Notes under the pieces: generated by a model
Told to the model about the DNA's origin: nothing
Seen by the model: only the letters and a program-made list of their open reading frames with translations
Database searches by the model: none
Position numbers and translations under genes: made by a program
Origin: a virus
Taxonomy: Duplodnaviria; Caudoviricetes
Strand: one strand, 5' to 3'
DNA: 43,999 nt
Virus record (IMG/VR): IMGVR_UViG_3300003969_000013
Location: 1-43,999 of that record
In this document: positions 15,134 through 28,740 of the stretch, piece after piece
How the letters are laid out: each line of letters starts with the position of its first letter
How positions within the stretch are numbered: the stretch's first letter is position 1

Positions 15134-16525
15134 TTAGCCTTTACGGGCGAGCGCCTCGGCGTCAGCCTCTGACCAGCCCTCGCGGATCAAGGCTTGCTTG
15201 ACGACTGCCGCCGCATCGTCTGCACCCTTGGCCGGATCGGCGGGCGGGGTGCGTGAAGTCGAAGACCGGGGCCGCAGCTTATCGCCGCCTTCAATGGGGC
15301 CATAACCGACAGCCGCGCGTTTCTCGTCGTCGGTCAGGAAGTCGGCATCTTTCAGCTTGGCGAAAGTGGCGTAGCGCCGTTCCGTAAGGGCCGGGATTGC
15401 ATCATCATCGATGTCGAACGCCCACCCCTCTTCGCCATAGGCAGGCCAGAGCCACTGATTCACTTCGGCGACGACGAGCCGCAGGATCGGCAGAACCGTA
15501 TCTTCCCAAAAGCTCAGGCGGGCTTGCTCCATGTTCGCGTAAGTCTGCGCATCGGGAATGCCGATCAATTGAGCCGGCACACCGAAGGCCATAGCGATTT
15601 CGATGGCCGCTTGCTGGCGACCGGCGAGCCAATCCATATCCTTCGGCGAAATCGACAGTTCTTTAGCCGTGAGCCCCCCGTCGAGCAGCATCACCGACCC
15701 GGCGTTGCGGGAGCCCGCATGAAGCGCCTGCAATTCGCCCTTGAGCCGCGCAAACTGTTCGTCGGTAAGCGTTGCCGGGCTGCCGTCTTTGGGCTCATAG
15801 ATGAGCGCGAGGCTGGGGCGCGCGCCGTTATTCAGCAGCGACTCGTTCCAGCGACCCGCCGCGAGATGCTGGGCAATCGCGGACATGGCCGGTTGCGTGT
15901 CGCCCTGCCCTAGCAGCACATCGCGCGGCGAGAACCGCTTGAGGTGCAGCAGCGCGCACCGCCCGGTCAGCGGGTCGGGGGTGTAGGTGTGATGACCGAG
16001 GCGCGTATCGTTGATCCGGTAGGTCGGAAGCGATAGCGCCGCCTCGCTCACCGAAACCCTATCCGGCTGGATCGGGTACAGTTCGCGCGGCGGCGCGTCC
16101 GTATCAGGGCCAACACCGAGGAGATAGGCGTTTCCCCCGATGACAAGATGGGAGACCAGGGCCTCGATCAGCGCTTCCCGCGTCCGCATCAGCGGCGACG
16201 GGCGCTTGATGAGGTCGATGGCCGGATGCTGGATCACCTCCTTTCGGTCTGTGCCGCTCGTGTCATAGAGCAGCCAGGGCACCGACGCCGCCGACCGGGC
16301 AATCAGGGAGATGCACCGATAGGCGACGGCGGATTCGGCGTAGCCCGCTTGCGCCAAAGCGCCATAGCTGGCCGTGCTAAGGTAGGACAGCAGATCGCCG
16401 CCGCCCGCAAAGCCAGCCACCAACGCCGGGGACGGGGCGTGCAGCGTCCAGCCTTGCTGCGGTTGATCGGCGACAGGCGCGGCCCCGAAACCGAGGTTCT
16501 TGCGGATGAACGAGACGAACGACAT
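15134..16525 (-). CDS. Portal protein, HK97 family
   Basis: YRCISLIA, GNAY, NGARPS, IAMAFGVPAQLIG, TYANMEQA. Confidence 0.95.
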   Translation of the reverse strand: MSFVSFIRKNLGFGAAPVADQPQQGWTLHAPSPALVAGFAGGGDLLSYLSTASYGALAQAGYAESAVAYRCISLIARSAASVPWLLYDTSGTDRKEVIQHPAIDLIKRPSPLMRTREALIEALVSHLVIGGNAYLLGVGPDTDAPPRELYPIQPDRVSVSEAALSLPTYRINDTRLGHHTYTPDPLTGRCALLHLKRFSPRDVLLGQGDTQPAMSAIAQHLAAGRWNESLLNNGARPSLALIYEPKDGSPATLTDEQFARLKGELQALHAGSRNAGSVMLLDGGLTAKELSISPKDMDWLAGRQQAAIEIAMAFGVPAQLIGIPDAQTYANMEQARLSFWEDTVLPILRLVVAEVNQWLWPAYGEEGWAFDIDDDAIPALTERRYATFAKLKDADFLTDDEKRAAVGYGPIEGGDKLRPRSSTSRTPPADPAKGADDAAAVVKQALIREGWSEADAEALARKG

Positions 16526-18063
16526 CAGAGCATCCTGATACGGGGTTGCGGGGCGGTGATGATCGGGGCGAAGGCGAGCATCAGGGCATCGGCCCGGTCG
16601 GGCGAAGGCAGCCCGCGCTTTTTCATCTCGTCCTTGCTCTCGATCACCACCCGCCCCCGGCTATCGATCCGATACCGGATCGCGCCGAGCTGGGTTAGGA
16701 GCGTGTCATCATCGGGCAGGCTGATCGTGCCTTCCCGAAAACGCTCCCGAAGGTTCCAAAACAGTTCGGCGCGCAGGTTCACATGCTGATCCGGCTCCCG
16801 CGCCCCGGCGCCGACGTTGATCGGGCACACGGGCAAGCGTTGCTCCTTCAGCCGGTCGGTCACGCCGCCGCCAAGGCCCGCATCATCGACATTGGCGATG
16901 CTCGCCCCGGTTTCGCGGAGCAGCCGGACAATCTGCCCCGTCGTTTCCATCAGGTCGCGCCCGCGCGCCGTGTGAGCGATACGGGCTACGTCCCCGCGCC
17001 GTTCGATGATGACGGTCTCGTCGGTGCCGTAGCGGGCAATATCGCAGCCGAGGGCAACGGGATCGCCCGGCGTGACGTTTTCCCGGTTCACCGCCGCCCG
17101 CAGCCAGCCCATCGGAATGAGCGTGTTCTCGGAAGCTTCGGGAAACTCGCCTTTGATCTTGGCGGTATAGAGGGGCGATTCCTCGCCCCAGTTCACCGCC
17201 ATTTCCTGAACCCATTTTGCCCCGACCAGCAGCGCGCGCAGCCCCTCGGGGATCGCCTCCCCGGTTAGGTTCGGCGTATCGAAAGCGCTGATCGGGATAA
17301 CCTTAAAGCCACTGCCGGGCGCGCATTTGCGGGCAAACTCGCTGGTGGGATCGTCCGGGTTGCCGATGGCAAAAAGGCGGCTTTCGTCGTTCGTCACCAG
17401 CGTTTCGGCGGCATCCCATAGGGTTTTGGGAATGCCGCAGGCTTCATCGAGAATGACCAGCACCCGCCGGGCGTGAATGCCCTGGAACGCGGTCATATCC
17501 ATATCTTGCGGCTTGCGCCCGAAGGCGACGAGTTCGCCGTCGATATGCCATTCGGTCTGATTCGTATGGCCGGGCAGCCCGCCCCGTTTGTGCGCCCGGT
17601 TGATTTCGCGCCAAAGGATCGCGCGGACCTGCCCGAAAGTTGGGGCCGAGGTAACAACGAAGGCATCGCCCGGCGGGCTTGTCGCCAACCACCAGGCCGC
17701 GACCCGCGCCGCAAGAAAGCTCTTCCCCGCCCCGTGACACGACGGCACCGCGACGCGGCGATGATCGCGCACGGCTTCGGCAATCACGCGCTGCCGCGAC
17801 CAAAGATGCTCCCGAAGCACGAACTGAACGAAGCCGACCGGATCATCGGCATAGGGGTAGCTCTGCTTCCGCGCGGCTTCCGCCGCCTCCCGCCGCGCCA
17901 GTTCGGCCCGAATGTGCCGCGCCAGCGCTTCCCGTTCAGCCGGGCTCAGCGGCCCCGCTACCGCCCCGACCTTCGAGCACGGCGAGGAGGGCGCGGAGCG
18001 TGTCACTGTCGGCGTTCTCCAGATCGAGCGGAATGGGGGCTCCCCCCGGCCCGCTATGCTCAA
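16525..18063 (-). CDS. terL: Terminase large subunit (start uncertain)
   Basis: Walker A SCHGAGKS, Walker B VILDEA, GNP, nuclease GCDIAR and SPDRADA. Confidence 0.92.
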   Translation of the reverse strand: MSIAGRGEPPFRSIWRTPTVTRSAPSSPCSKVGAVAGPLSPAEREALARHIRAELARREAAEAARKQSYPYADDPVGFVQFVLREHLWSRQRVIAEAVRDHRRVAVPSCHGAGKSFLAARVAAWWLATSPPGDAFVVTSAPTFGQVRAILWREINRAHKRGGLPGHTNQTEWHIDGELVAFGRKPQDMDMTAFQGIHARRVLVILDEACGIPKTLWDAAETLVTNDESRLFAIGNPDDPTSEFARKCAPGSGFKVIPISAFDTPNLTGEAIPEGLRALLVGAKWVQEMAVNWGEESPLYTAKIKGEFPEASENTLIPMGWLRAAVNRENVTPGDPVALGCDIARYGTDETVIIERRGDVARIAHTARGRDLMETTGQIVRLLRETGASIANVDDAGLGGGVTDRLKEQRLPVCPINVGAGAREPDQHVNLRAELFWNLRERFREGTISLPDDDTLLTQLGAIRYRIDSRGRVVIESKDEMKKRGLPSPDRADALMLAFAPIITAPQPRIRML

Positions 18064-18376
18064 GCTGCTGCGGCTTCTCGCGCCACCCTGCCCGCGTCTT
18101 CAGCCAGAAGATTTGCGCCGTATTGTTCCCGGCAATGGCCGACTTGAAGAGCGATTGCGCCACCAGCGCATTGGCCTTTTCGAGCCCCTGCGAAAGTTCG
18201 GCGCGGAAGTATTTCGTGAGCGTCGGCACCGTGATCGGCTTACCCGCCGCCCCCGTGATGAAGGTGCAAATCACCTCCTGCTGCACCCCGCAGGCAACCA
18301 GCGCTTCGACAAGGCGGCGCTGTTCATCGGTCGGGGTGAAGACGGGACGGCCTCGAGTCATTGCGATTTTCGCCAT
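17936..18376 (-). CDS. terS: Terminase small subunit
   Basis: GRPVFTPTDEQRRLVE, TAQIFWLKTRAGWRE, EHSGPGGAPI. Confidence 0.85.
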   Translation of the reverse strand: MAKIAMTRGRPVFTPTDEQRRLVEALVACGVQQEVICTFITGAAGKPITVPTLTKYFRAELSQGLEKANALVAQSLFKSAIAGNNTAQIFWLKTRAGWREKPQQLEHSGPGGAPIPLDLENADSDTLRALLAVLEGRGGSGAAEPG

Positions 18377-19199
18377 GCAATTTACTCGCTTCCGTAATCA
18401 TAGCCAGCGTGTCGAGCGCTTCCGATCTATCGGAATAAATCTTTCCAGGATTAATATAAAAGCCATTCCCATTCAGGCCAGACTCACCCCTTATCACAGT
18501 AACCCAATCCTGCATAAAATAATCAAAATAAATTACCTCTATTTCTATGAACATATTTTTACTATTTTCATGACCCAATAAAATATTACCAAATTTACTA
18601 TTTAGAAATTTTTCATCTTTTATCACTGTATTCAATTTAAAAGACTCATTTCCATGGATATAGACATCAACAATCAATCCACTTACCAAATCTTCATTTA
18701 TCTTTTTTCTTATAGATCCAGAATCAAGATATACATTAATATTTTTTATAATAGCAGCGCTTTTACCATAATTTCTTATCTTTAACCCTATTACAAAAAA
18801 TGTTGGGTCGTAACCCATTACAACTAAATATGGCCTTTCAGCAATTTTGTTAATCAGAATAGATGCCTGAGCCGCGTTTGCGGAAATTTCTGCCTGTGCA
18901 GTTGCTGCCTGCATCTCCGCACGAGTAGCCTCCAATTCCTCCCGCTGAATGCGGATACTGACTAACAGCAAGTAAATTGTGATGAACGTAAGAATCGGGT
19001 TGACTACACCGCCGAAGAAATCGCCGATCGTACCAAAGCCGCCGAACTGACCGTCTCCCGTTACCCCCTCAATATTGAAGGCGAGGCGCACCACCCCGGG
19101 AAACCAGGCTGCGCCTAAGTAGACAAGTGCGAACAGCGCGACGATTGAACCGATGATCCATTTACCGTTCGGATACTTCGTCTTCTGTTTTTCCGCCAT
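18324..19199 (-). CDS. Membrane-anchored moron protein with putative-Abi-like N-terminus
   Basis: Two TM segments, GTIGDFFGGVVNPILTF...QREELEATR; very AT-rich C-terminal half; start reassigned to ATG 19199. Confidence 0.65.
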   Translation of the reverse strand: MAEKQKTKYPNGKWIIGSIVALFALVYLGAAWFPGVVRLAFNIEGVTGDGQFGGFGTIGDFFGGVVNPILTFITIYLLLVSIRIQREELEATRAEMQAATAQAEISANAAQASILINKIAERPYLVVMGYDPTFFVIGLKIRNYGKSAAIIKNINVYLDSGSIRKKINEDLVSGLIVDVYIHGNESFKLNTVIKDEKFLNSKFGNILLGHENSKNMFIEIEVIYFDYFMQDWVTVIRGESGLNGNGFYINPGKIYSDRSEALDTLAMITEASKLHGENRNDSRPSRLHPDR

Positions 19200-19266
19200 A
19201 ACGTCCCTGCCCCCTTGAGAAAACCTCCCATAGGTTGCAGGGACGCCACGGCGATAGCAACCGCTT

Positions 19267-19932
19267 TTAACCTCCCTTAACCCCGACCCAGCCGCCGAAC
19301 TCGCCATAACGGAACCATTCGGCCCAAGCGACGCCCTGCCCGTCCGTCCGCAAGTCAGGCGGGATGGGGCGTTGCAGTCCGGCAAGAGACAGGTCTTTCG
19401 CCAGAATATCTATCGCCGCCTCCCCCGCGTCGGCCTTCGCCGCCCAGGTGAGCCGCCTCAGAACCGTTCCGATATAGCCCGGCGGCGCATCCTCCTTATC
19501 GACCAGCAGCAAGGCCCCGCCCGGCTTGAGGCTGGCGAGCAGCTTCGCCACCAGCGCCGCCCGGTCGGCGGGCGGGATGAACATGAGCACGAGCGCGCAC
19601 ACAATCAGGTCGGCCGGGCGAAACGGATAGGTGCGCGCGTCCGCCTGAAGCACCCGCCCCGGCCCCCGGTACTGGCGGATCATTTCCGGGCTGGTGTCGA
19701 GCGCGATCAGCTTTGCCTGCCGCGCCGTCAGGGTTGGGGCGAGAGCGCGCCCGACGTTGCCGGTGCTGGCCCCAATGTCATAGACGAGGCCGCGCTCGGG
19801 GATGAAGTGCCGGGCGACGAGCGTAAGCGCCCCCGTCATGAGATCGTACCAGGGCAGTTGCGCCCGCACATGGGTATCAAACCCCGCCGCCACCTCCGCG
19901 CTGTCGAAACTCCAATCCGCCGGGATCTTCAT
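19267..19932 (-). CDS. CmoA-like class I SAM-dependent enzyme
   Basis: DWSFD..VAAGF, LPWY, VYDIGASTG, ALDTSPEMI, LKPGGALLLVDK, WFRYGEFG are colinear with carboxy-SAM synthase CmoA motifs. Confidence 0.8.
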   Translation of the reverse strand: MKIPADWSFDSAEVAAGFDTHVRAQLPWYDLMTGALTLVARHFIPERGLVYDIGASTGNVGRALAPTLTARQAKLIALDTSPEMIRQYRGPGRVLQADARTYPFRPADLIVCALVLMFIPPADRAALVAKLLASLKPGGALLLVDKEDAPPGYIGTVLRRLTWAAKADAGEAAIDILAKDLSLAGLQRPIPPDLRTDGQGVAWAEWFRYGEFGGWVGVKGG

Positions 19933-21464
19933 GCCGCCCCCCGGTGGGTGAGGGGAAGCCCAAGCCGGGCACTGAAGGCCGCAAGCGCATCCTCTACCAG
20001 CCCCAGGCGCGAGCCGTCCGGGTAGGGTAGATCGAACTCAAACCGAAGCGCTTCGGCCAGCCGGGCCGGGTCTGGCGGCAGGGCATTGGCACAGGCGGCA
20101 TAAACATTGTTCCCGTCGCTAGAAACCGAGACCGTCCCGAAGAAAGGCCGGAACAGGGCGTAAAACTCCTCCGGCGTGTGGAACTTCTGAACCTTGGGCT
20201 TGTCCTGAAAATCCCCCAGGGTGATTCCCGGCTCATACTGAAGCCGGAAGACGTTGGACCGTACCGCCTGCTCAAACAGGTAGTGCGCGCCGTTGACCGA
20301 CTGCCAGCCCTGCTGCTCAACACTGCTGGCGCAGGCATAGAGGCGGGTCCGGGGTCCGCATAGGGCGGACGTTAGGCAGGCGATATGCTCCCGATCCTCC
20401 CGAAACGGAACACTGTTGAGCACCGACGAAATGAAGACGCTCGACCAGTCTACCCCGGCGGCGACATCGGCCAGGAAGGCGCGGGCGAGGGTTAGGCTTT
20501 CCGCCTTATCGATCTGCTGGCTTTGGCCCAGGCGGTAAGGCTCGAAGGCCGACACCCGCACGCCGACGCTTTCCAGCAATCGGGCTTCCTGCAAGTGCCC
20601 TGCCCCGAAGTCGATAATGCTGCCCCCATGCAGCCGCTTCCATTGGGCGGTGAGCGCCGGTTTGGCGATGTCATAGCGCCCTGCCGTTACCTTCGGCGCA
20701 ACGAAATAGGTGAACCCGAGCCCGAGCCCGTCGCGCACCCGCCGCGCCCGGCGGAACGAGTTATGCCGAAGCAGGTCGCGGTAACGGTTATGGATGTCGA
20801 AATCCATGCTGAGCCGGTTCAGCATCGCATCCGACAGCGCGGCTTCAGCGTCCGTCACCCACACCACGGGAATGAGGCCCTGCCCCGCTTCCCCTGCGAT
20901 CATCAAGCGCCCGATACCGTTGGTGACGCGACCGTTCCGGGTGGCGATCACCGGCATGATGATGCCCTTCCCCTTGAGGGTGCGGGCCATACCTGCCGCA
21001 TACTCGATCCAGCGCCCGGCGTTCGCGTCGATCAAGTCCCGGATCGGCACCAGGTCAGGGGTAAGGCAGCGGAAGGCTTCGGCACTGTCCGGGGCTTTAT
21101 CCGGCACCGCCTCGGCCAGGGCAGGCAGATCGAGGCTTGCCAGCGCCGCCGCCATCGTCTCTGGCGTATCGCTCGGGTGCAGATCGTTCGTGCCCCGGTT
21201 AAAGAGGACGTTGACCGCCTTACGTTCGGCCAACTCCATCGGGCGCGTGCGGGCGACCGGCAGGCGGGTATAGCCCAAGCGTTGGGCGACGTGATGCCGC
21301 TGGTGGCCTGAGACGATTTCGCCCGCGGGGTCCGCATAGATCGGCAGCAGGAACCCCAGTTTCCGCAGCGACAGTTCAATCAGATCAAGCCGCGCCGGAT
21401 CGGCGACGCGGGGGTTATAGGTGCTGGGGTTGATAGCCCCGAGCGGAAGAAGATCGATCTGCAT
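19929..21464 (-). CDS. ParB/Srx-domain protein fused to a SAM-dependent transferase domain
   Basis: YNPR...GFLLPI...IVSGHQR; second ParB-like repeat IMPVI...VTNGIGRL; IIDFGAGH motif I, AFEPY, SSVLNSVPF; start via TAATG coupling. Confidence 0.78.
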   Translation of the reverse strand: MQIDLLPLGAINPSTYNPRVADPARLDLIELSLRKLGFLLPIYADPAGEIVSGHQRHHVAQRLGYTRLPVARTRPMELAERKAVNVLFNRGTNDLHPSDTPETMAAALASLDLPALAEAVPDKAPDSAEAFRCLTPDLVPIRDLIDANAGRWIEYAAGMARTLKGKGIIMPVIATRNGRVTNGIGRLMIAGEAGQGLIPVVWVTDAEAALSDAMLNRLSMDFDIHNRYRDLLRHNSFRRARRVRDGLGLGFTYFVAPKVTAGRYDIAKPALTAQWKRLHGGSIIDFGAGHLQEARLLESVGVRVSAFEPYRLGQSQQIDKAESLTLARAFLADVAAGVDWSSVFISSVLNSVPFREDREHIACLTSALCGPRTRLYACASSVEQQGWQSVNGAHYLFEQAVRSNVFRLQYEPGITLGDFQDKPKVQKFHTPEEFYALFRPFFGTVSVSSDGNNVYAACANALPPDPARLAEALRFEFDLPYPDGSRLGLVEDALAAFSARLGLPLTHRGAA

Positions 21465-22150
21465 TAGGCCGCCTCCCCGCTTTCGTCGGGGACCCTCAGG
21501 CGGCGTTTGATTTCCGCCAGAATGAGCGGCTTTTCCAAGCCCACATCCCGCCGCAGTTGATCCTGCCACGCCAGATAGGCGGCGCGGGAAATCGGGGCGC
21601 GGTACATGCCGATGACGATCATCGTCCCGGCTTCGGGAATCTCCCCGATGTCGCTCAAGGGTGAATGCACACCGTCGAGCAAGGGCGTCGGCGCGAGCAT
21701 CGAGGTTAGGTCGGCAATCTCCAGGGCCGAGAAGCCCGTGAGGTCGAGATTGAAACCCTCCTGCTGCAAATCCGCCAGCTCAAGCGCCAGCAACTCACTA
21801 TCCCACCCGGCCATTTCGGCGAGGCGGTTATCGGTCAGCACATAGGCGCGGCGTTGCGCTGGGGTGAGGTGCCCGAGGTCAATCGTCGGCACCAGCGCCG
21901 GATCGGGCCAATGGGGAATCAGCCGCCCCGTCTCGACAATCAAGCGCACCGCCGCGACGCGGCCATGCCCGGCGAGGATGCCCGACTGCCCATCGAGCAG
22001 CACCGGAGCCGTCCAGCCATATTCGCACAGGCTGGCCGCAATCGCCGCCACCTGCGCCTTTGTGTGGGTCCGCGCGTTGCGGGCATAGGGGATCAACCCG
22101 TCAAGGTGGCGATTGACCACCTGCACGGTCACATTCTGTTCGTCTTTCAT
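21464..22150 (-). CDS. ParB/Srx N-terminal domain protein
   Basis: LIPYARNARTH, ILAGHGR, AYVLTDNRLAEMAGWD, LTGF. Confidence 0.85.
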   Translation of the reverse strand: MKDEQNVTVQVVNRHLDGLIPYARNARTHTKAQVAAIAASLCEYGWTAPVLLDGQSGILAGHGRVAAVRLIVETGRLIPHWPDPALVPTIDLGHLTPAQRRAYVLTDNRLAEMAGWDSELLALELADLQQEGFNLDLTGFSALEIADLTSMLAPTPLLDGVHSPLSDIGEIPEAGTMIVIGMYRAPISRAAYLAWQDQLRRDVGLEKPLILAEIKRRLRVPDESGEAA

Positions 22151-22159
22151 TGATGCACA

Positions 22160-22297
22160 GCCGATGCTAGAAGCTCCCCGCCGCAGCGCGCGGTGCGGGG
22201 ACGGTCGAACGGAGTCGACCTTTTTGGCCGTGCAGGGGACTAGCCTGCGGTTCCTGGCGTTGCCGCGCCAGTGCCCCCCGCTTAAAACGCGGAGGGG
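22160..22297 (-). promoter_or_regulatory. Candidate structured 5' leader (five tandem hairpins)
   Basis: Inverted repeats at 22274-22297, 22254-22271, 22232-22248, 22203-22220, 22175-22201. Confidence 0.4.
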
Positions 22298-22305
22298 TAA
22301 AACGC

Positions 22306-22331
22306 AAAAACCCCTGACGAATCAGGGGCTT
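22306..22331 (-). terminator. Terminator ahead of the late operon (tR'-like position)
   Basis: AGCCCCTGA-TTCG-TCAGGGGTT-TTT. Confidence 0.7.
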
Positions 22332-22583
22332 GGGTGTTTTCTAGGGTCAAAAAGAAAACCCTCGGCAGGCGTTGGGCGCTTTTCTGCCAAGGGTACAAAA
22401 ATATATGCCTTTTTTTGGAAAGTATGGAAAGGGGGAAAAGCATAATAGTCAACGCTCTTGCCTGCAAAGTGCCATAGAGCGGGAGAGGCTTTAACCAATA
22501 GCAATCTTTTTAATTGCATTATGCGAGAAAAATCATCACAAAATTGATACAAAGCGTACACCAACAACTATTATCTGGGGCTG

Positions 22584-24407
22584 ATGATGCAGGATGAAAA
22601 ATCAAAAAGCGAACAACTTGCTTTTTTTTCACAGCAAGTTACCGTTCCCAAACTAAATCCCAAAAAAATACCTGGACTTGCCAGAAGAAAGCCAGAATTC
22701 ACCAGCTCCCCCCATGTTCCACACAGAATTCAGATCAATAGCATTAAATTTCAAGAAAAGCCATTCAGAAAGCTTACAACTCTTGAGCTTAATATTGCAA
22801 ATCACATTACTCTAATCTCCGGCCATAATGGAATAGGGAAATCAACTATAATTGGTTTAATTGCAGCTTCTTCTGGATTAACGGAATCGAGCAGCAATAA
22901 CAATACATATGCAAATAAAACATTCCAAGCCGATCTCTCAGAAATAATATATGTCGGAACAGACGAAATTACAGAAGACGTTAATAAATCTTATCCGATT
23001 GTTACATACTCTGTAAATGGAAATCAGATACTTCGAAAAAACTGCAGCCTCACGACACGTAATGAGGGTGCCGGAACTCAGTCAAGGCGTGCTAGAATAG
23101 TTCCTAGAAATGCTCGACCATCTACAAAATTCGTAAGCAACGAACCTGAAATAACGATTGGTGAGGCGGCAAAAGTACCGCTACCCACAATTTATCTAGG
23201 AATGGCTCGGGTCCTCCCTATCGGAGAGGCCGCAGAGAGCTCTGTTGAAAGTAATAAGATTGAGGACATGGAATTAGAGGACCGTAATTTTGTGACAGAC
23301 TTTGTAAATGGAGTGATCTTAGGCTCGCCTGCCAAAAGCGAGACAGTTACATCAAACCTCATTAGAGGAACCAATAAATTCTCCAGCCATCCCGAGTATA
23401 CTTATAATGCGCAATGCGTATCATTGGGCCAGGATAGCTTAGGTAGCATCGCTGCCGCACTAGCCTCATTTCAACGCCTGAAGCGCAATATGAAAGAGAA
23501 ATACCCGGGCGGGCTTTTAATAATAGATGAGCTGGATTGCGGCTTTCATCCGCATGCTATCGGGCGTCTGGTCAGCCGTCTCGAAGAACAATGCGAGAGA
23601 TTACAGTTACAGGTAATCGCGACAACACATTCAACAAAACTGATTAAATGCATACATAAAGATAAAAATAAGAAAAAGCAAAATAACGGAGTGATTTATC
23701 TCCGTGACAGCACATCTCCGCACTTACTTGGCTCTGGAGACCTAAATGATATTCTGGACGATATGGATCTCGTCCCCCCCGCCCCCAAACCAAAGCGAAG
23801 GAAGCCAAAATTAACAATCTACCTTGAAGATAAAGAAGCCCTATTCATCTTCAATAAGACAATATCTAAGGCAAAAAAAATCTCAATTTCTAGAGATCAC
23901 TCAATCACTCTTAACCCTGTCGACTTGGGGGTGGGGTGCTCAAGTCTGGCCGAATTCCCGAATAAGGATCCGCAATTCAAGAGAAATATCATTTGCCTAG
24001 ATGGAGATTACGGACTGACGAAGGGGCAAGCCACCAAAAAAAACTTAGTGACCCTTCCTGCAGATGGTAAAAAGTCCCCGGAAAATACTATATACGATTT
24101 CATAAAAGATTTAGTGAACAACCCGGGCGGTCATAAAAATTCCTGGGAAATTCTCCACTCAAATAAAGTGACTACCGATATACTGCGCGAATACCTATTA
24201 AATTTTCCTGGGGGGATAAACAATCGACAGGAGGCGAAAAAATGGTGGAGAGATAGGGTGCAGCATATTCACAACTGGGGGCTTTTTGAGCTGTGGCTCG
24301 GCGAGAACCCTCAGGCCGCAACGAAATTTGAGAATGACTTAACAAATGCCATAAAGGTCGTCTCGAAGCACATCCGGACGCTGGCCAGAAACGAAGAGTT
24401 GGAGTAA
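22584..24407 (+). CDS. ABC-type (AAA_15/21) ATPase with C-terminal TOPRIM-like domain (OLD/GajA-like)
   Basis: Walker A GHNGIGKST, signature SLGQ, Walker B LLIIDELD-GFHP, H-loop TTHS, TOPRIM IYLED and LDGD; AT-rich. Confidence 0.82.
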   Translation: MMQDEKSKSEQLAFFSQQVTVPKLNPKKIPGLARRKPEFTSSPHVPHRIQINSIKFQEKPFRKLTTLELNIANHITLISGHNGIGKSTIIGLIAASSGLTESSSNNNTYANKTFQADLSEIIYVGTDEITEDVNKSYPIVTYSVNGNQILRKNCSLTTRNEGAGTQSRRARIVPRNARPSTKFVSNEPEITIGEAAKVPLPTIYLGMARVLPIGEAAESSVESNKIEDMELEDRNFVTDFVNGVILGSPAKSETVTSNLIRGTNKFSSHPEYTYNAQCVSLGQDSLGSIAAALASFQRLKRNMKEKYPGGLLIIDELDCGFHPHAIGRLVSRLEEQCERLQLQVIATTHSTKLIKCIHKDKNKKKQNNGVIYLRDSTSPHLLGSGDLNDILDDMDLVPPAPKPKRRKPKLTIYLEDKEALFIFNKTISKAKKISISRDHSITLNPVDLGVGCSSLAEFPNKDPQFKRNIICLDGDYGLTKGQATKKNLVTLPADGKKSPENTIYDFIKDLVNNPGGHKNSWEILHSNKVTTDILREYLLNFPGGINNRQEAKKWWRDRVQHIHNWGLFELWLGENPQAATKFENDLTNAIKVVSKHIRTLARNEELE

Positions 24408-24416
24408 GCTAGAAAA

Positions 24417-25283
24417 ATGTTCTCCAATCGGCTCTTCACCCCCCTGCGCTATCCGGGCGGAAAAGCTCGCTTTGCGCCCTACGTGGCTGACGTGATGCGG
24501 AATAACAAGCTCGACGGCGGTCACTACTTGGAACCCTATGCCGGAGGTGCGGGTGTAGCCCTGGACCTGCTGTATTCAGGGATCGCTTCTGAAGTCCACA
24601 TAAACGACGCGGACCCTGCGATCCGAGATTTTTGGTTGGCCGCCACCAAACACACAAGCCAACTGATCCGAATGGTCGAAACAGAGCCTGTTACGATTGA
24701 GGCTTGGCGTCATTGGCGCGCAATCATGAACCACCAAATCGAGGCTGACGAGCTGAAACGTGGCTTCGCGACACTATTCCTCAATCGGACTAATCGTTCT
24801 GGCATTTTGAATGGTGGAGTTATCGGAGGAAAAGAGCAGGCCGGAGAGTATAAGATAGATGCGAGATTCATTAGAAAAAACCTTGTCCAGCGCTTGGAAA
24901 AAATCGGACAACACGCGGAGAGGATTCACGTCTACGGCGAGGATGCGTTAGGCTTGTTAAACCGCTGTGCAGATTTTTTGCCCAAACACTCGCTCATTTA
25001 TTTAGACCCCCCTTATTACGTAAAAGGTCAAAGACTTTACCGAAATTTTTATGGTCATAACGATCACCTTGAGATCGCCAATCTTCTGCAAGCGAATAAA
25101 TTTCCGAGAAAATGGATAGTCTCATACGATGATGCACCCGAAATTAGGAAAATGTATCATAAGTCTGAGTTCAGAAGTTACCTTTTACACTATACTGCTC
25201 GCAGACAATACAAAGGGTCGGAGGTAATGATCTTTAGTCAGGAGATTAAGGATATACCAAACAGTGATCTACTGGCGGCATGA
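24417..25283 (+). CDS. DNA adenine methyltransferase (Dam/D12 class)
   Basis: TPLRYPGGK, YLEPYAGGAG, IND, FLNRTNRSG, IYLDPPYY, WIVSYD. Confidence 0.92.
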   Translation: MFSNRLFTPLRYPGGKARFAPYVADVMRNNKLDGGHYLEPYAGGAGVALDLLYSGIASEVHINDADPAIRDFWLAATKHTSQLIRMVETEPVTIEAWRHWRAIMNHQIEADELKRGFATLFLNRTNRSGILNGGVIGGKEQAGEYKIDARFIRKNLVQRLEKIGQHAERIHVYGEDALGLLNRCADFLPKHSLIYLDPPYYVKGQRLYRNFYGHNDHLEIANLLQANKFPRKWIVSYDDAPEIRKMYHKSEFRSYLLHYTARRQYKGSEVMIFSQEIKDIPNSDLLAA

Positions 25284-25290
25284 TTAGAAA

Positions 25291-25740
25291 TCAGAGAGGG
25301 GTGTGCCGCTCAGCTAGCAAGACACATCCCTCTTTCCGCCAAGCCCTGAGGGTCTGGCGCGTAACCCCAAGCTCTTGCGCCAGCGCATCATACCGCACGC
25401 CCAACGCCAGCCCCACGAGCACCTTACGCCTATCCAAATCCTCAATGAGAAGCGGCCACTGGATCGCCTCTTCCATCCGCGTGATCCGTGCCGCGCTAAA
25501 CACCTGGCGCTTCTTCGTCGGCCATGCCTCGCCCGGCCCGAGCAGGGGTTCTGGCATCGAGGAGCCATAGCCCGCAGGCCAGCAGCGTTCGGGGATATGC
25601 TTGAGGGTCTGGAAGGCTTCCTTGAGCCGCGCCCAAACGTACTCGGGGGTGATTTCTTCCGGCGGCACGTCGAGATCGCGCGGGTCGGAACGCTGCCCGA
25701 GGGCGACGAGCCCGAAGGCTTGAGCGCGGTTAGCCGTCAT
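25291..25740 (-). CDS. DUF6362-like HTH protein, putative late-gene regulator (Q position)
   Basis: TPEYVWARLKEAFQTLKHIP...GYGSSMPE...ITRMEEAIQW; C-terminal HTH; last gene of early-right operon. Confidence 0.6.
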   Translation of the reverse strand: MTANRAQAFGLVALGQRSDPRDLDVPPEEITPEYVWARLKEAFQTLKHIPERCWPAGYGSSMPEPLLGPGEAWPTKKRQVFSAARITRMEEAIQWPLLIEDLDRRKVLVGLALGVRYDALAQELGVTRQTLRAWRKEGCVLLAERHTPL

Positions 25741-26642: not shown

Positions 26643-27673
26643 GGTACTTTCTCCCAGGTGTCAGCATCGATGATCTGCCCCGCAGCGGGGGCGTTCGGGT
26701 GGGGTTCAAGTGGCGGCTCGCCGTCGCGGAATCGGGGATCGCCCCCAAAGTCGCGGCGGATTTCAGCGGCGAGATCGGAGGTAGTTTGGCCGCGATTGTG
26801 CGAGCCGTTCAGGGTGACACCTGTCACCCCCGAACGCTCAACGACGGCCCTCACCCGATTGCGCCAAGTCGCGCGCCAATCGAGCTTCACGCCCTTCGAT
26901 CCCGCCACACCGAGCCAGAAATCTCGGAACTCATCGGCGACGCGGTCGATGCGGTTCCAGGCCAACCCAAGCGCAAGCGCATCCTCCCGCCACTCAGGCG
27001 GCAAGGTCCAATCAGCAGGCAGGCGAGCGCCTCGCAGTGCTGGCTTCGGCTTGGGCGGTGTTTCTGGCTTCGCTGGCTCTGCCGCTTTGGGCTCGCCAAC
27101 CGGCGCTCCCCCCTCCGGCTCAAGCCCCGGAAGTTGCGGGGGGATAATGGGGGGAGTATCCGAACGGAGTGAGGATACTTTCCTCTCTGTTCTATTCCGT
27201 TCCGTTCCTAGCATTGCATCTGCAATGCCATCGCATTTTTGCTTTTCAATGTTTTCAATGGGTTGATCGAAAGAAGGCGCGTCTAGATTCCAACGGTTCT
27301 CCGCGCTACGCCGTCCGCGCTGGGACTTTTGCAGCGCTTCCTGCACCGCCTCGACCAACATCGGGTGATAGAGCCGCCCGTCCGAGCACAGAACCCACCC
27401 CCGCAAAGCCCCCTTCCGGCGCTTTTTCCAGCCGCGTAAATCGCGCCCCATCCCGGCGAGGTAGGCGAGCTTTGCGTCGTCATCCGGCAGGCTCCCGGCA
27501 GGCAGTTGGTGCCACGCCGCCATCATCAGGATCATGCAGAACCAGTTGTCGGCAGGGTCGCCTTCAATCGCCATGTCGCTATTGCGCAGGTCGGCCGCAT
27601 TAATGCTGACGCACGGGAAATGCCGCAGATCAGCGTCCGCAGGGATCGGGGGTTGGGGGAGTTGGGCTGTCAT
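26639..27673 (-). CDS. DUF1376/YdaU-like replication initiator
   Basis: AWHQLPAGSLPDDDAKLA, GWVLCSDGRLYHP; C-terminal RLPADW...FRDFW...KLDWRATWRN. Confidence 0.82.
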   Translation of the reverse strand: MTAQLPQPPIPADADLRHFPCVSINAADLRNSDMAIEGDPADNWFCMILMMAAWHQLPAGSLPDDDAKLAYLAGMGRDLRGWKKRRKGALRGWVLCSDGRLYHPMLVEAVQEALQKSQRGRRSAENRWNLDAPSFDQPIENIEKQKCDGIADAMLGTERNRTERKVSSLRSDTPPIIPPQLPGLEPEGGAPVGEPKAAEPAKPETPPKPKPALRGARLPADWTLPPEWREDALALGLAWNRIDRVADEFRDFWLGVAGSKGVKLDWRATWRNRVRAVVERSGVTGVTLNGSHNRGQTTSDLAAEIRRDFGGDPRFRDGEPPLEPHPNAPAAGQIIDADTWEKVP

Positions 27674-28740
27674 GCCGCCCCGTCCAGATAGGCCGCGATA
27701 AACTCAGCCGCGAGTTCCGGCACGATGGCATTGCCGTAGCCTTGCAACATCCCTGTGCGCCACGGCGGCAGACCTAAGCCGTCTTTGCCTTTGCGGTACG
27801 GGCTGGCTTCGCCGGGGCGCACAGATCCCATATCGGCGGATAGCCCATCAACCAGCGGGAATGAGCCGGGTTCAACTGGCCGGTACTTGCCGTCTGTGCA
27901 GTAAATCCAGTCGGGGTTTCGCCAGAAACCGCGTAGAGAACCTGCCGGGCCAAGGGCTGCCCCTTCGATCCGTATAATTGTTCCGCCGTAAGCTGGCTCC
28001 TGTCGCTGCGGAAGTCCCGCGCCGCTGGGGTTGCCCAGGTCGATAAGGCTAAGGTCGCGGCGGTCTGAAGATTCAGACCGCCTTCCCGCCCTTGGTTGCC
28101 CTTGCCGGTACAGTTGCGCGCCGTCGCTGTAGGCCAGGTCGCCAGCAACGCCACGCCCGGCAGCTTGAGATAAATCGGCCTTGATCCGTCCGGTCTGATC
28201 GGCCCGTAGCTGTGCGTGCTCTTCCCATCGTTGCTGATCGCGGTCGGCCACGAACCAAAGGCGGGGTCGGTTGTGCGGCGCGCCGACGCTCGCAGCAGGG
28301 GCAGGCACCGTCCCGATGGCGTAACCAGCGGCTTCCAGGTCATCTGAAACAAGATCGATCCAGCCGTGTTTAACCGCGCTTTCAACCTGCTCGCCAAAAA
28401 TAGCGTTAGGGCCGCACTCGCCGATGAGCCGGAACCAGTCCGGCCAAAGGTGCCGCTCGTCGGCGGTGCCTTTGCCTTCGCCCGCGCTGCTGAACGGTTG
28501 GCAAGGACAGGAGCCGGTCCAGACGGGCCGATCATCGGGCCAGCCTGAGAGGCGCAGCGCGTGGCTCCATCCCCCGATTCCAGCGAAGAAATGGCACTGG
28601 GTAAATCCCACAAGGTCATCTGGTTGAACATCAAGGATGCTCCGGGTATCGACAACGCCCGGCGCAATCGCCCCGGCGTCGATCAGGTTCCGCAGCCAAT
28701 CGGCGGCGTAGGGGTTGTTCTCATTGTAGTAGGCCGTCAT
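27670..28740 (-). CDS. DNA (cytosine-5) methyltransferase, main chain
   Basis: Motif [44 protein letters not shown]. Confidence 0.92.
27774..28631 (-). CDS. Nested alternative-frame polypeptide carrying C5-MTase motif IX (putative beta subunit; start uncertain)
   Basis: Same-strand ORF ending [18 protein letters not shown]; repeated WPT/WATP segments. Confidence 0.65.

Follow-up and report, generated by a model that had tools for sequence, protein, structure and literature searches.

A ParB–transferase–CmoA gene trio of phages as a candidate module for DNA carboxymethylation outside cytosine C5

The window analyzed here is the 44-kb provirus record IMGVR_UViG_3300003969_000013 (Caudoviricetes; 43,999 nucleotides), taken at its full length, and the system in question consists of three adjacent genes on its minus strand, designated g1, g2, and g3 (Table 1). 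A first-pass annotation, made from the sequence alone, had described three translationally coupled genes at the head of the late operon, just before terminase, and had proposed that they modify phage DNA with a group other than methyl. The coupling was confirmed: the open reading frames (ORFs) overlap at TAATG and ATGA, all three lie on the minus strand, and their GC contents of 64 to 68% are prophage-like. A position at the head of the late operon is suggested by gene order. The module does not directly precede terminase, as a 291-amino-acid ORF with a GC content of 41% separates g3 from the small-subunit gene.

Table 1. Module components and surrounding features, with positions in the window
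Feature	Position	Strand	Remarks
g1	22150-21464	minus	228 aa; stand-alone ParB-N protein with conserved C-terminal extension
g2	21464-19929	minus	511 aa; ParB-N / ParB-N / class I SAM-fold transferase (PHROG 5475)
g2, first ParB-N domain	21186..21464	minus	residues 1-93, GHQR box; Pfam ParB_N E 4e-4, below cut-off; profile matches Noc, Spo0J
g2, second ParB-N domain	20811..21062	minus	residues 135-218, NGIGR box; repeats secondary structure of domain 1
g2, transferase domain	20070..20801	minus	residues 222-465; DFGAG, FEP, VLNSVPF..DR, PKVQK
g3	19932-19267	minus	221 aa; CmoA-fold protein, K[ED]LSLxGxQRP subfamily
g3, lid-helix motif KDLSLAGLQRP	19366..19398	minus	Asp at column 199; Arg eight residues later, column 207
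291-aa low-GC ORF between g3 and terS	19199-18324	minus	41% GC; PHROG 8999
Terminase small and large subunit genes (context)	16525..18376	minus	PHROG 309 terS E 8e-16; Terminase_6N E 9e-4
ATPase and Dam-like gene pair, low GC	22584-25283	plus	PADLOC PD-Lambda-5_B match, methylase E 4.5e-112
C5-MTase (PHROG 363)	27670-28740	minus	5.5 kb upstream of module; GN motif

The product of g1 matched PHROG 620/15396 (E≤3e-39) and is, as annotated, a ParB protein without the fused methylase: it covers only positions 29 to 170 of the 633-position methylase PHROG 498. It carries a GHGR box, corresponding to the GxxR box of ParB-N/Srx proteins, and the C-terminal residues W195, G204, R217, and L218 are invariant among 45 sequences. 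A g1 gene was found upstream of g2 in 127 of the 128 loci having at least 1.5 kb of upstream sequence.

The annotated double-ParB protein with a class I S-adenosylmethionine (SAM) fold was likewise recovered in g2, which matched PHROG 5475 with an E value of 4e-105. An AlphaFold model based on 120 sequences (predicted local distance difference test score [pLDDT], 90; predicted template modeling [TM] score, 0.87) shows a pair of ParB-N units ahead of a class I Rossmann domain, with one strand/helix pattern repeated at residues 3 to 91 and 137 to 216. The second ParB-N domain is 27% identical to the first over 64 residues (E 3e-5), and the g1 profile matched residues 1 to 90 and, weakly, 158 to 214 (independent E value, 4e-4). 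Their GxxR boxes are GHQR and GIGR, with matches to Noc, ParB, KorB, and Srx; PADLOC matched only the first domain. The transferase domain carries DFGAGH at residues 285 to 290, and its strand 4 (342 to 346) leads into SSVLNSVPF (346 to 354) in place of the N6-adenine/N4-cytosine motif [DNSH]PP[YFW]. With regard to CmoX, the DNA carboxymethyltransferase of the C5-methyltransferase (C5-MTase) type from Synechococcus phage S-B43, g2 gave no match to PF00145 and contains neither SPPC nor any PC dipeptide. The lack of both PC and [DNSH]PP[YFW] places g2 probably among the enzymes that alkylate heteroatoms directly.

Pfam and NCBIfam assign no curated family to this domain. Methyltransf_23 was matched weakly by 17 of 39 members; a search of NCBIfam, including CmoB, gave no match at E≤1, and HHalign aligned g2 with CmoB at a probability of 16% over 70 columns in the strand 4 region. 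Foldseek returned both Noc/ParB proteins and small-molecule methyltransferases. In a comparison with 48,161 chains by VIA-align, the top match to the domain was METTL6 (Z score, 13.0; root mean square deviation, 3.5; 195 residues aligned; 10% identity), within 1 Z unit of four other methyltransferases, with Trm9 at a Z score of 11.3. The best methyltransferase match of a 123-sequence g2 profile was UbiG (E 2.6e-6). These matches give the fold class of g2, not its substrate; likewise, no C5 or N6/N4 DNA methyltransferase was among the fold-search rows listed, an absence that does not exclude such a relationship. Among 1.84 billion representatives clustered at 50% identity, the g2 family comprises 514 clusters at E≤0.001, of which 181 reach E≤1e-30, and most of the matches listed are about 500 residues long.

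The CmoA-like enzyme annotated downstream indeed has the CmoA fold (TM score, 0.85 to Escherichia coli CmoA, 4GEK). A Foldseek search with the g3 model (pLDDT, 93.5) returned CmoA/YecO in the top six rows, phmmer aligned g3 with 4GEK at an E value of 6.5e-18, and g3 falls in PHROG 4752, the family that also holds the CmoA of S-B43. From the residue list of Byrne et al. 2013, g3 keeps Tyr39, Gly64, Ser66, Asp89, Asp117, and the acidic residue at 164, as Asp. In E. coli CmoA the carboxylate is held by Arg199 (Byrne et al. 2013). The validated S-B43 CmoA has Glu199 and Arg203, so that it, like g3, is without Arg199, and it forms carboxy-SAM about 10 times faster than E. coli CmoA (PMC12783734). 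We aligned 182 CmoA-like proteins and dropped one truncated row. Arginine stands at exactly one of columns 199, 203, and 207 in 177 of the 181 distinct sequences (199 only, 59; 203 only, 12; 207 only, 106); one sequence has two such residues, and three (SM1, HJ05, and L216, the L numbers being those of our surveyed loci) have none. The g3 protein belongs to the Arg207 group, and its close relatives have Glu or Asp at 199. This suggests that the arginine may have migrated among the three columns, and Arg207 of g3 would bind the carboxylate. Arg199 is thus an unsafe filter for CmoA-like proteins. The argument that Asp199 disqualifies g3 as a carboxy-SAM synthase loses force, since the S-B43 CmoA has Glu199 and the g3 subfamily has the CmoX partners described below, and g3 is likely a carboxy-SAM synthase, judging from its sequence relationships.

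The genomic partners of the g3 subfamily were examined in 81 loci, namely, the best 80 of 455 confirmed viral loci and that of Moraxella phage Mcat8. A CmoX-type C5 enzyme was present in 50 (the motif arginine in 50 of 50, SPPC in 49 of 50, a CmoY gene near 18) and g2 in 24; no locus contained both, and six of the seven with neither have less than 1.5 kb of upstream sequence. The C5 enzyme of Mcat8 retains the GRMV motif and shares 48% identity with S-B43 CmoX. In its wild-type form, S-B43 CmoX uses carboxy-SAM alone (PMC12783734), and since CmoX partners this subfamily, the subfamily very likely makes carboxy-SAM. The fifty CmoX loci (L167-L242) use CmoA of the Arg207 type, 18 with a CmoY-like ligase. 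Locus L209 reads ParB-CmoX-cmoA-terS-terL and locus L210 reads ParB-g2-HAD-cmoA; their cmoA genes are 95.7% identical over 632 nucleotides, and the transferase differs. Because a cmoA gene is shared, the transferase is exchanged, and the two transferases exclude each other, g2 fills the gene slot of the proven DNA carboxymethyltransferase CmoX. In a quick maximum-likelihood tree (82 rows reduced from 182), g3 lies in a 52-row clade (SH-aLRT, 99) with 28 CmoX-partnered and 24 g2-partnered members. The partner label changes 7 times across the tree, 3 of these changes being forced by well-supported branches. Our results indicate that g2 has likely replaced CmoX in these loci.

The gene neighborhood survey that the first-pass annotation had called for covered 164 g2 loci (the best 80 of 341, the best 80 of 130, and four phage records), 161 of them with a full g2. 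With a broad profile, 116 of the 120 loci that have at least 3 kb of downstream sequence showed a CmoA-like gene next to the g2 relative (non-redundant, 26 of 27); a narrow profile gave 114 of 120. The trio occurs in isolated phages of Gordonia, Pseudomonas, and Aeromonas, and the module is real and widespread. Other conserved neighbors are the terminase genes and, in 124 loci, a HAD-like protein of 130 to 150 residues. This protein, encoded between g2 and cmoA, has a DLNYT motif and is PNKP-phosphatase-like (PHROG 32036; e.g., L162:1205-1657, L210:2142-2534, and L002:2633-3115). No match to CmoY or CmoB was found in the g2 loci, nor to CmoY in the window, which places the module outside the CmoA-CmoX-CmoY group.

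A sister clade of g2, at 25 to 27% identity, has the same ParB-ParB-methyltransferase architecture and retains DFGxG, E308, VxNS, Q426, and E476. It comes from E. coli phage-plasmids (71 of 5,426 genomes) and from Bacteroides and Brochothrix phages. We scanned 164 of its loci, 153 with a full-length protein, and found a CmoA-like gene in none of the 125 with at least 3 kb downstream (non-redundant, 0 of 42). R238, R239, R358, and K424 are all present in 32 of 32 g2-clade sequences. R238, R239, and R358 are lacking in 54 of 54 sister-clade sequences, and a basic residue at 424 is lacking in 53 of 54, these positions holding Ala, Gln, Glu/Gln/His, and mostly Phe/Tyr, respectively. R186, in the second ParB-N domain, is likewise found in 32 of 32 g2-clade sequences and is Tyr or Phe in the sister clade. 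The clade-specific basic residues are reminiscent of CmoX, with its Asn-to-Arg change, and of CmoB, with Lys91/Arg315. Sister-family loci, often beside terminase, include L245:34517-36513 (the phage-plasmid of E. coli ATCC 25922), L246, L247, and L336. The sister family may form a methyltransferase class that lacks both PC and NPPY.

Taken together, the co-occurrence in 116 of 120 loci, the mutual exclusion with CmoX, and the CmoA-less sister clade strengthen the earlier proposal of a cofactor-making enzyme, a partner transferase, and a mark outside C5. They allow the cofactor to be identified as probable carboxy-SAM, for which a published phage precedent, uncited in the annotation, exists (PMC12783734). 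We propose, with a probability of roughly 0.6, that the trio is a conserved phage module in which g3 makes carboxy-SAM, g2 uses it to carboxymethylate phage DNA at a nitrogen or, less likely, an oxygen, but not at C5, and g1 activates g2 on double-stranded DNA. The g3 enzyme would carboxylate SAM with host prephenate, as CmoA does, an activity that the CmoX partners of its subfamily point to. Carboxy-SAM would then be held in the class I pocket of g2, where one or more of R238, R239, R358, and K424 may grip the carboxylate. Because g2 has no catalytic PC cysteine, it would alkylate a base heteroatom by direct substitution, and our best guess for the acceptor is a base nitrogen. METTL6 methylates cytosine N3 in tRNA. 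With a ring-nitrogen acceptor of this type, base pairing would be prevented, which fits poorly with dense modification, so that an exocyclic amine, N7, or an oxygen are candidate acceptors. Since the module has no amide ligase, the carboxymethyl group would stay free as the end product (+58 Da).

The ParB-N domains of g1 and g2 might load or open the duplex, by the precedent of the phage T-dioxygenases. A T-dioxygenase acting on double-stranded DNA requires a stand-alone phage ParB, no stable complex between the two was seen, and mutations in the nucleoside triphosphate site had little effect (PMC13229309). By this analogy, g1 is likely an activator or loader of g2. A phage ParB activates a DNA-modifying dioxygenase in E. 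coli without the packaging machinery (PMC13229309), so that adjacency to terminase need not mean physical coupling. The case for packaging coupling of the module consists of its position and a prediction quoted in PMC4738411. Late expression beside terminase would serve to mark progeny DNA against host restriction. A search for the target motif by di- and tetranucleotide bias gave nothing that survived 136 tests, a result that is uninformative because the CmoX control shows no GC depletion. Avoidance of 4-mer palindromes was nominally stronger in CmoX loci (raw median, -0.58) than in g2 loci (-0.29).

Several observations weigh against this proposal. Four g2 loci have no CmoA-like gene (L007, L087, L101, and L102), and the sister-clade loci are short, a distant cmoA being excluded for one whole plasmid only (L245). 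Among 116 more diverse g2 relatives, the basic residues are less constant (R238 in 99, R239 in 94, R358 in 115, and K424 in 102), the alignment register of 238/239 relative to the sister clade shifts between runs, and the four residues could bind DNA instead of the carboxylate. The CmoA tree, from a quick search, has long branches. For g3, the score of 73.6 bits lies below the TIGR00740 cut-off of 193.3, the column of E. coli Arg199, the criterion of Byrne et al. 2013, holds Asp, and the residues at N132 and Q136 also differ (Ala and Met; position 132 is Leu in S-B43 CmoA). The orientation of Arg207 toward the pocket is only presumed, and the 199/203/207 pattern represents about three clades, not 177 events. 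The CmoA-like proteins of SM1 (L003:9264-10001) and HJ05 (L004:2645-3382), which have no arginine at these columns, may rely on a different residue or produce some other SAM derivative.

Such observations raise the possibility that g3 has diverged to make another SAM derivative, to methylate on its own, or to drain SAM, with g2 a plain methyltransferase, as presumed for the sister clade. Besides the arginine-less proteins of SM1 and HJ05, this would account for the Asp or Glu at the Arg199 column throughout the subfamily, Met136, the shorter C-terminal region of the g3 subfamily, and the next-best folds of g3, the CysG/BelI methyltransferases (TM scores of 0.79 to 0.82). We judge it unlikely. 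The same subfamily, with proteins up to 99% identical, supplies the only CmoA found next to CmoX genes with the motif arginine that marks carboxy-SAM use, and the wild-type S-B43 CmoX takes carboxy-SAM only; the validated S-B43 CmoA itself has Glu199; and a g2 using plain SAM would leave the all-or-none link to cmoA (116 of 120 versus 0 of 125) unexplained. Also unlikely is a reading in which g2 uses carboxy-SAM from g3 on RNA, on a phage or host protein, or on a small molecule or nucleotide instead of DNA. The characterized non-C5 carboxymethyltransferases, CmoB, TglF, and MccB, all act on tRNA or peptide products, and the best structural matches of g2 are RNA and small-molecule enzymes (the tRNA enzymes METTL6 and Trm9 and small-molecule N-methyltransferases among them), not DNA enzymes. 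ParB-N folds also double as general nucleotide-binding modules (PMC12704722), and the HAD-like protein found in 124 loci is PNKP/dNMPase-like. Nevertheless, g2 occupies the slot of a proven DNA enzyme and phage DNA modifiers are on record as having ParB partners, while the window has no tRNA gene and only 15 of 160 related loci have one, with mixed anticodons.

The PNKP-phosphatase-like HAD can also be read as trimming terminal phosphates while g2 carboxymethylates phosphate or hydroxyl oxygens of the DNA backbone or ends, shielding packaging ends or nicks. This would suit the nearness of terminase, UbiG, an O-methyltransferase and the best sequence-profile methyltransferase match of g2, and the appearance among its fold matches of DhpI, a phosphonate O-methyltransferase. 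However, the HAD gene is absent from the window and from six Vibrio-type or viral loci in which g3 abuts g2, and a dedicated synthase suggests many sites, in line with the discussion in PMC12783734, which makes this reading improbable. A role of g2 as a CmoM/Trm9-like enzyme that methyl-esterifies a carboxymethyl group placed by another enzyme would fit the Z score of Trm9. This seems very improbable, as the g2 loci have no CmoX, CmoB, or other conserved transferase to place that group; a C5-MTase is nearby in ten of them, with GN in each of the 7 inspected.

With regard to hosts, a protein named for Elstera cyanobacteriorum falls in a g2 cluster 86% identical to the g2 of the window, which hints at an alphaproteobacterial host. 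Neither CmoA nor CmoB scored above the cut-off in four of the five host genomes tested (genomes of unstated completeness), and a role of the module as supplier to a host tRNA CmoB was accordingly rejected. The Photobacterium host has both CmoA and CmoB, yet its prophage carries the module. Aeromonas phage HJ05 encodes a DAHP synthase (L004:6257-7420) three genes after its arginine-less cmoA-like gene. DAHP synthase opens the pathway that leads to prephenate, and it is possible that this gene boosts prephenate supply.

Elsewhere in the window, the 291-residue ORF encodes hydrophobic N-terminal stretches, belongs to a PHROG of unknown function, gave no match in Pfam or PADLOC, and is probably an unrelated insertion. 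The annotation's statement that the cluster has no C5-MTase holds for the cluster itself; the prophage does have one upstream, with GN instead of GR at the CmoX arginine motif. That enzyme was ruled out as a hidden CmoX by the GN motif and an SCPC sequence, and a 297-residue ORF (27774-28667, minus strand) overlaps it in a different frame of the same strand. The ATPase and Dam-like pair, inserted upstream of the module against the prophage direction, is likely a prophage-borne defense island. An Rfam search of positions 17500 to 25500 gave no match, no tRNA genes were found in the window, and promoter and terminator counts in the module region are at chance level; with that background, a terminator-like hairpin with a T run lies about 160 bases upstream of g1 (22331-22308, minus strand).

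Only one natural DNA carboxymethylation appears in the literature searched, and the module points to a second, unrelated enzyme. In the open-access literature, with subscription papers outside the search, phage CmoA appeared only in PMC12783734, and the titles listed for Samunavirus included no study of modification. The module also points to a likely new modified base in phages of many bacterial groups (181 clusters of the g2 family at 50% identity, E≤1e-30). The cultured phages SM1, HJ05, and Evaa carry versions that can be tested, E. coli itself makes carboxy-SAM, and the mark could possibly provide a carboxyl handle for labeling DNA at a new position.

Known systems resemble the module in part. 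The genomic slot is that of ParB-terminase loci with ParB-fused N6/N4 methyltransferases or ParB-Methyltransf_23 fusions (PMC4738411 and PMC12704722), although g2 has no [DNSH]PP[YFW]; a link to CmoA is not mentioned in the excerpts of these papers, and "CmoA" has no occurrence in PMC12704722. The ParB-dependent phage T-dioxygenases (O'Toole et al., PNAS 2026, PMC13229309) share a separate ParB-N protein without a helix-turn-helix beside a DNA modifier, but their chemistry differs, and g2 carries two ParB-N domains of its own. Phage Mu Mom also places a carboxymethyl-type antirestriction mark on a base nitrogen, N6-methylcarbamoyladenine (PMC7261163); the proposed requirements of Mom are acetyl-CoA and iron, and it is unrelated to the SAM fold. 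Bacterial CmoA/CmoB (tRNA cmo5U), MccS/MccB, and TglE/TglF (PMC3663124, PMC10491745, and PMC8323819) similarly pair a CmoA-fold synthase with a class I non-C5 heteroatom or nucleobase transferase, whereas g3 is without Arg199 and below the CmoA cut-off, and g2 is neither CmoB nor MccB, has ParB domains, and lies in a phage packaging region.

The closest likeness is to the CmoA-CmoX-CmoY system of S-B43 (Yang et al., Nat Commun 2025, PMC12783734), in which a PHROG 4752 CmoA likewise neighbors a SAM-fold transferase and a ParB gene is often present. In contrast to S-B43 CmoX, g2 is not a C5-MTase (it has no SPPC, no motif X arginine, and another fold class) and carries two fused ParB-N domains, and its loci are without CmoY and often contain the HAD gene. 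The authors of that study state that they identified no N6/N4 carboxymethyltransferase candidate, and a term search of its supplements gave no matches for ParB or adenine. The chance is about even that with g2 a natural DNA carboxymethyltransferase appears for the first time outside the C5 family, one that writes an undescribed N- or O-carboxymethyl base and arose from the equally unstudied ParB-ParB-methyltransferase family. Under this reading, the CmoA-less sister clade, found on the ATCC 25922 phage-plasmid among others, would be a class of DNA methyltransferases lacking both PC and NPPY, and phages would have rerouted two unrelated methyltransferase folds to one cofactor, swapping them as cassettes between ParB and cmoA. 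In its operation the module would resemble CmoA-CmoX, but its transferase is of another class, which keeps it outside that system.

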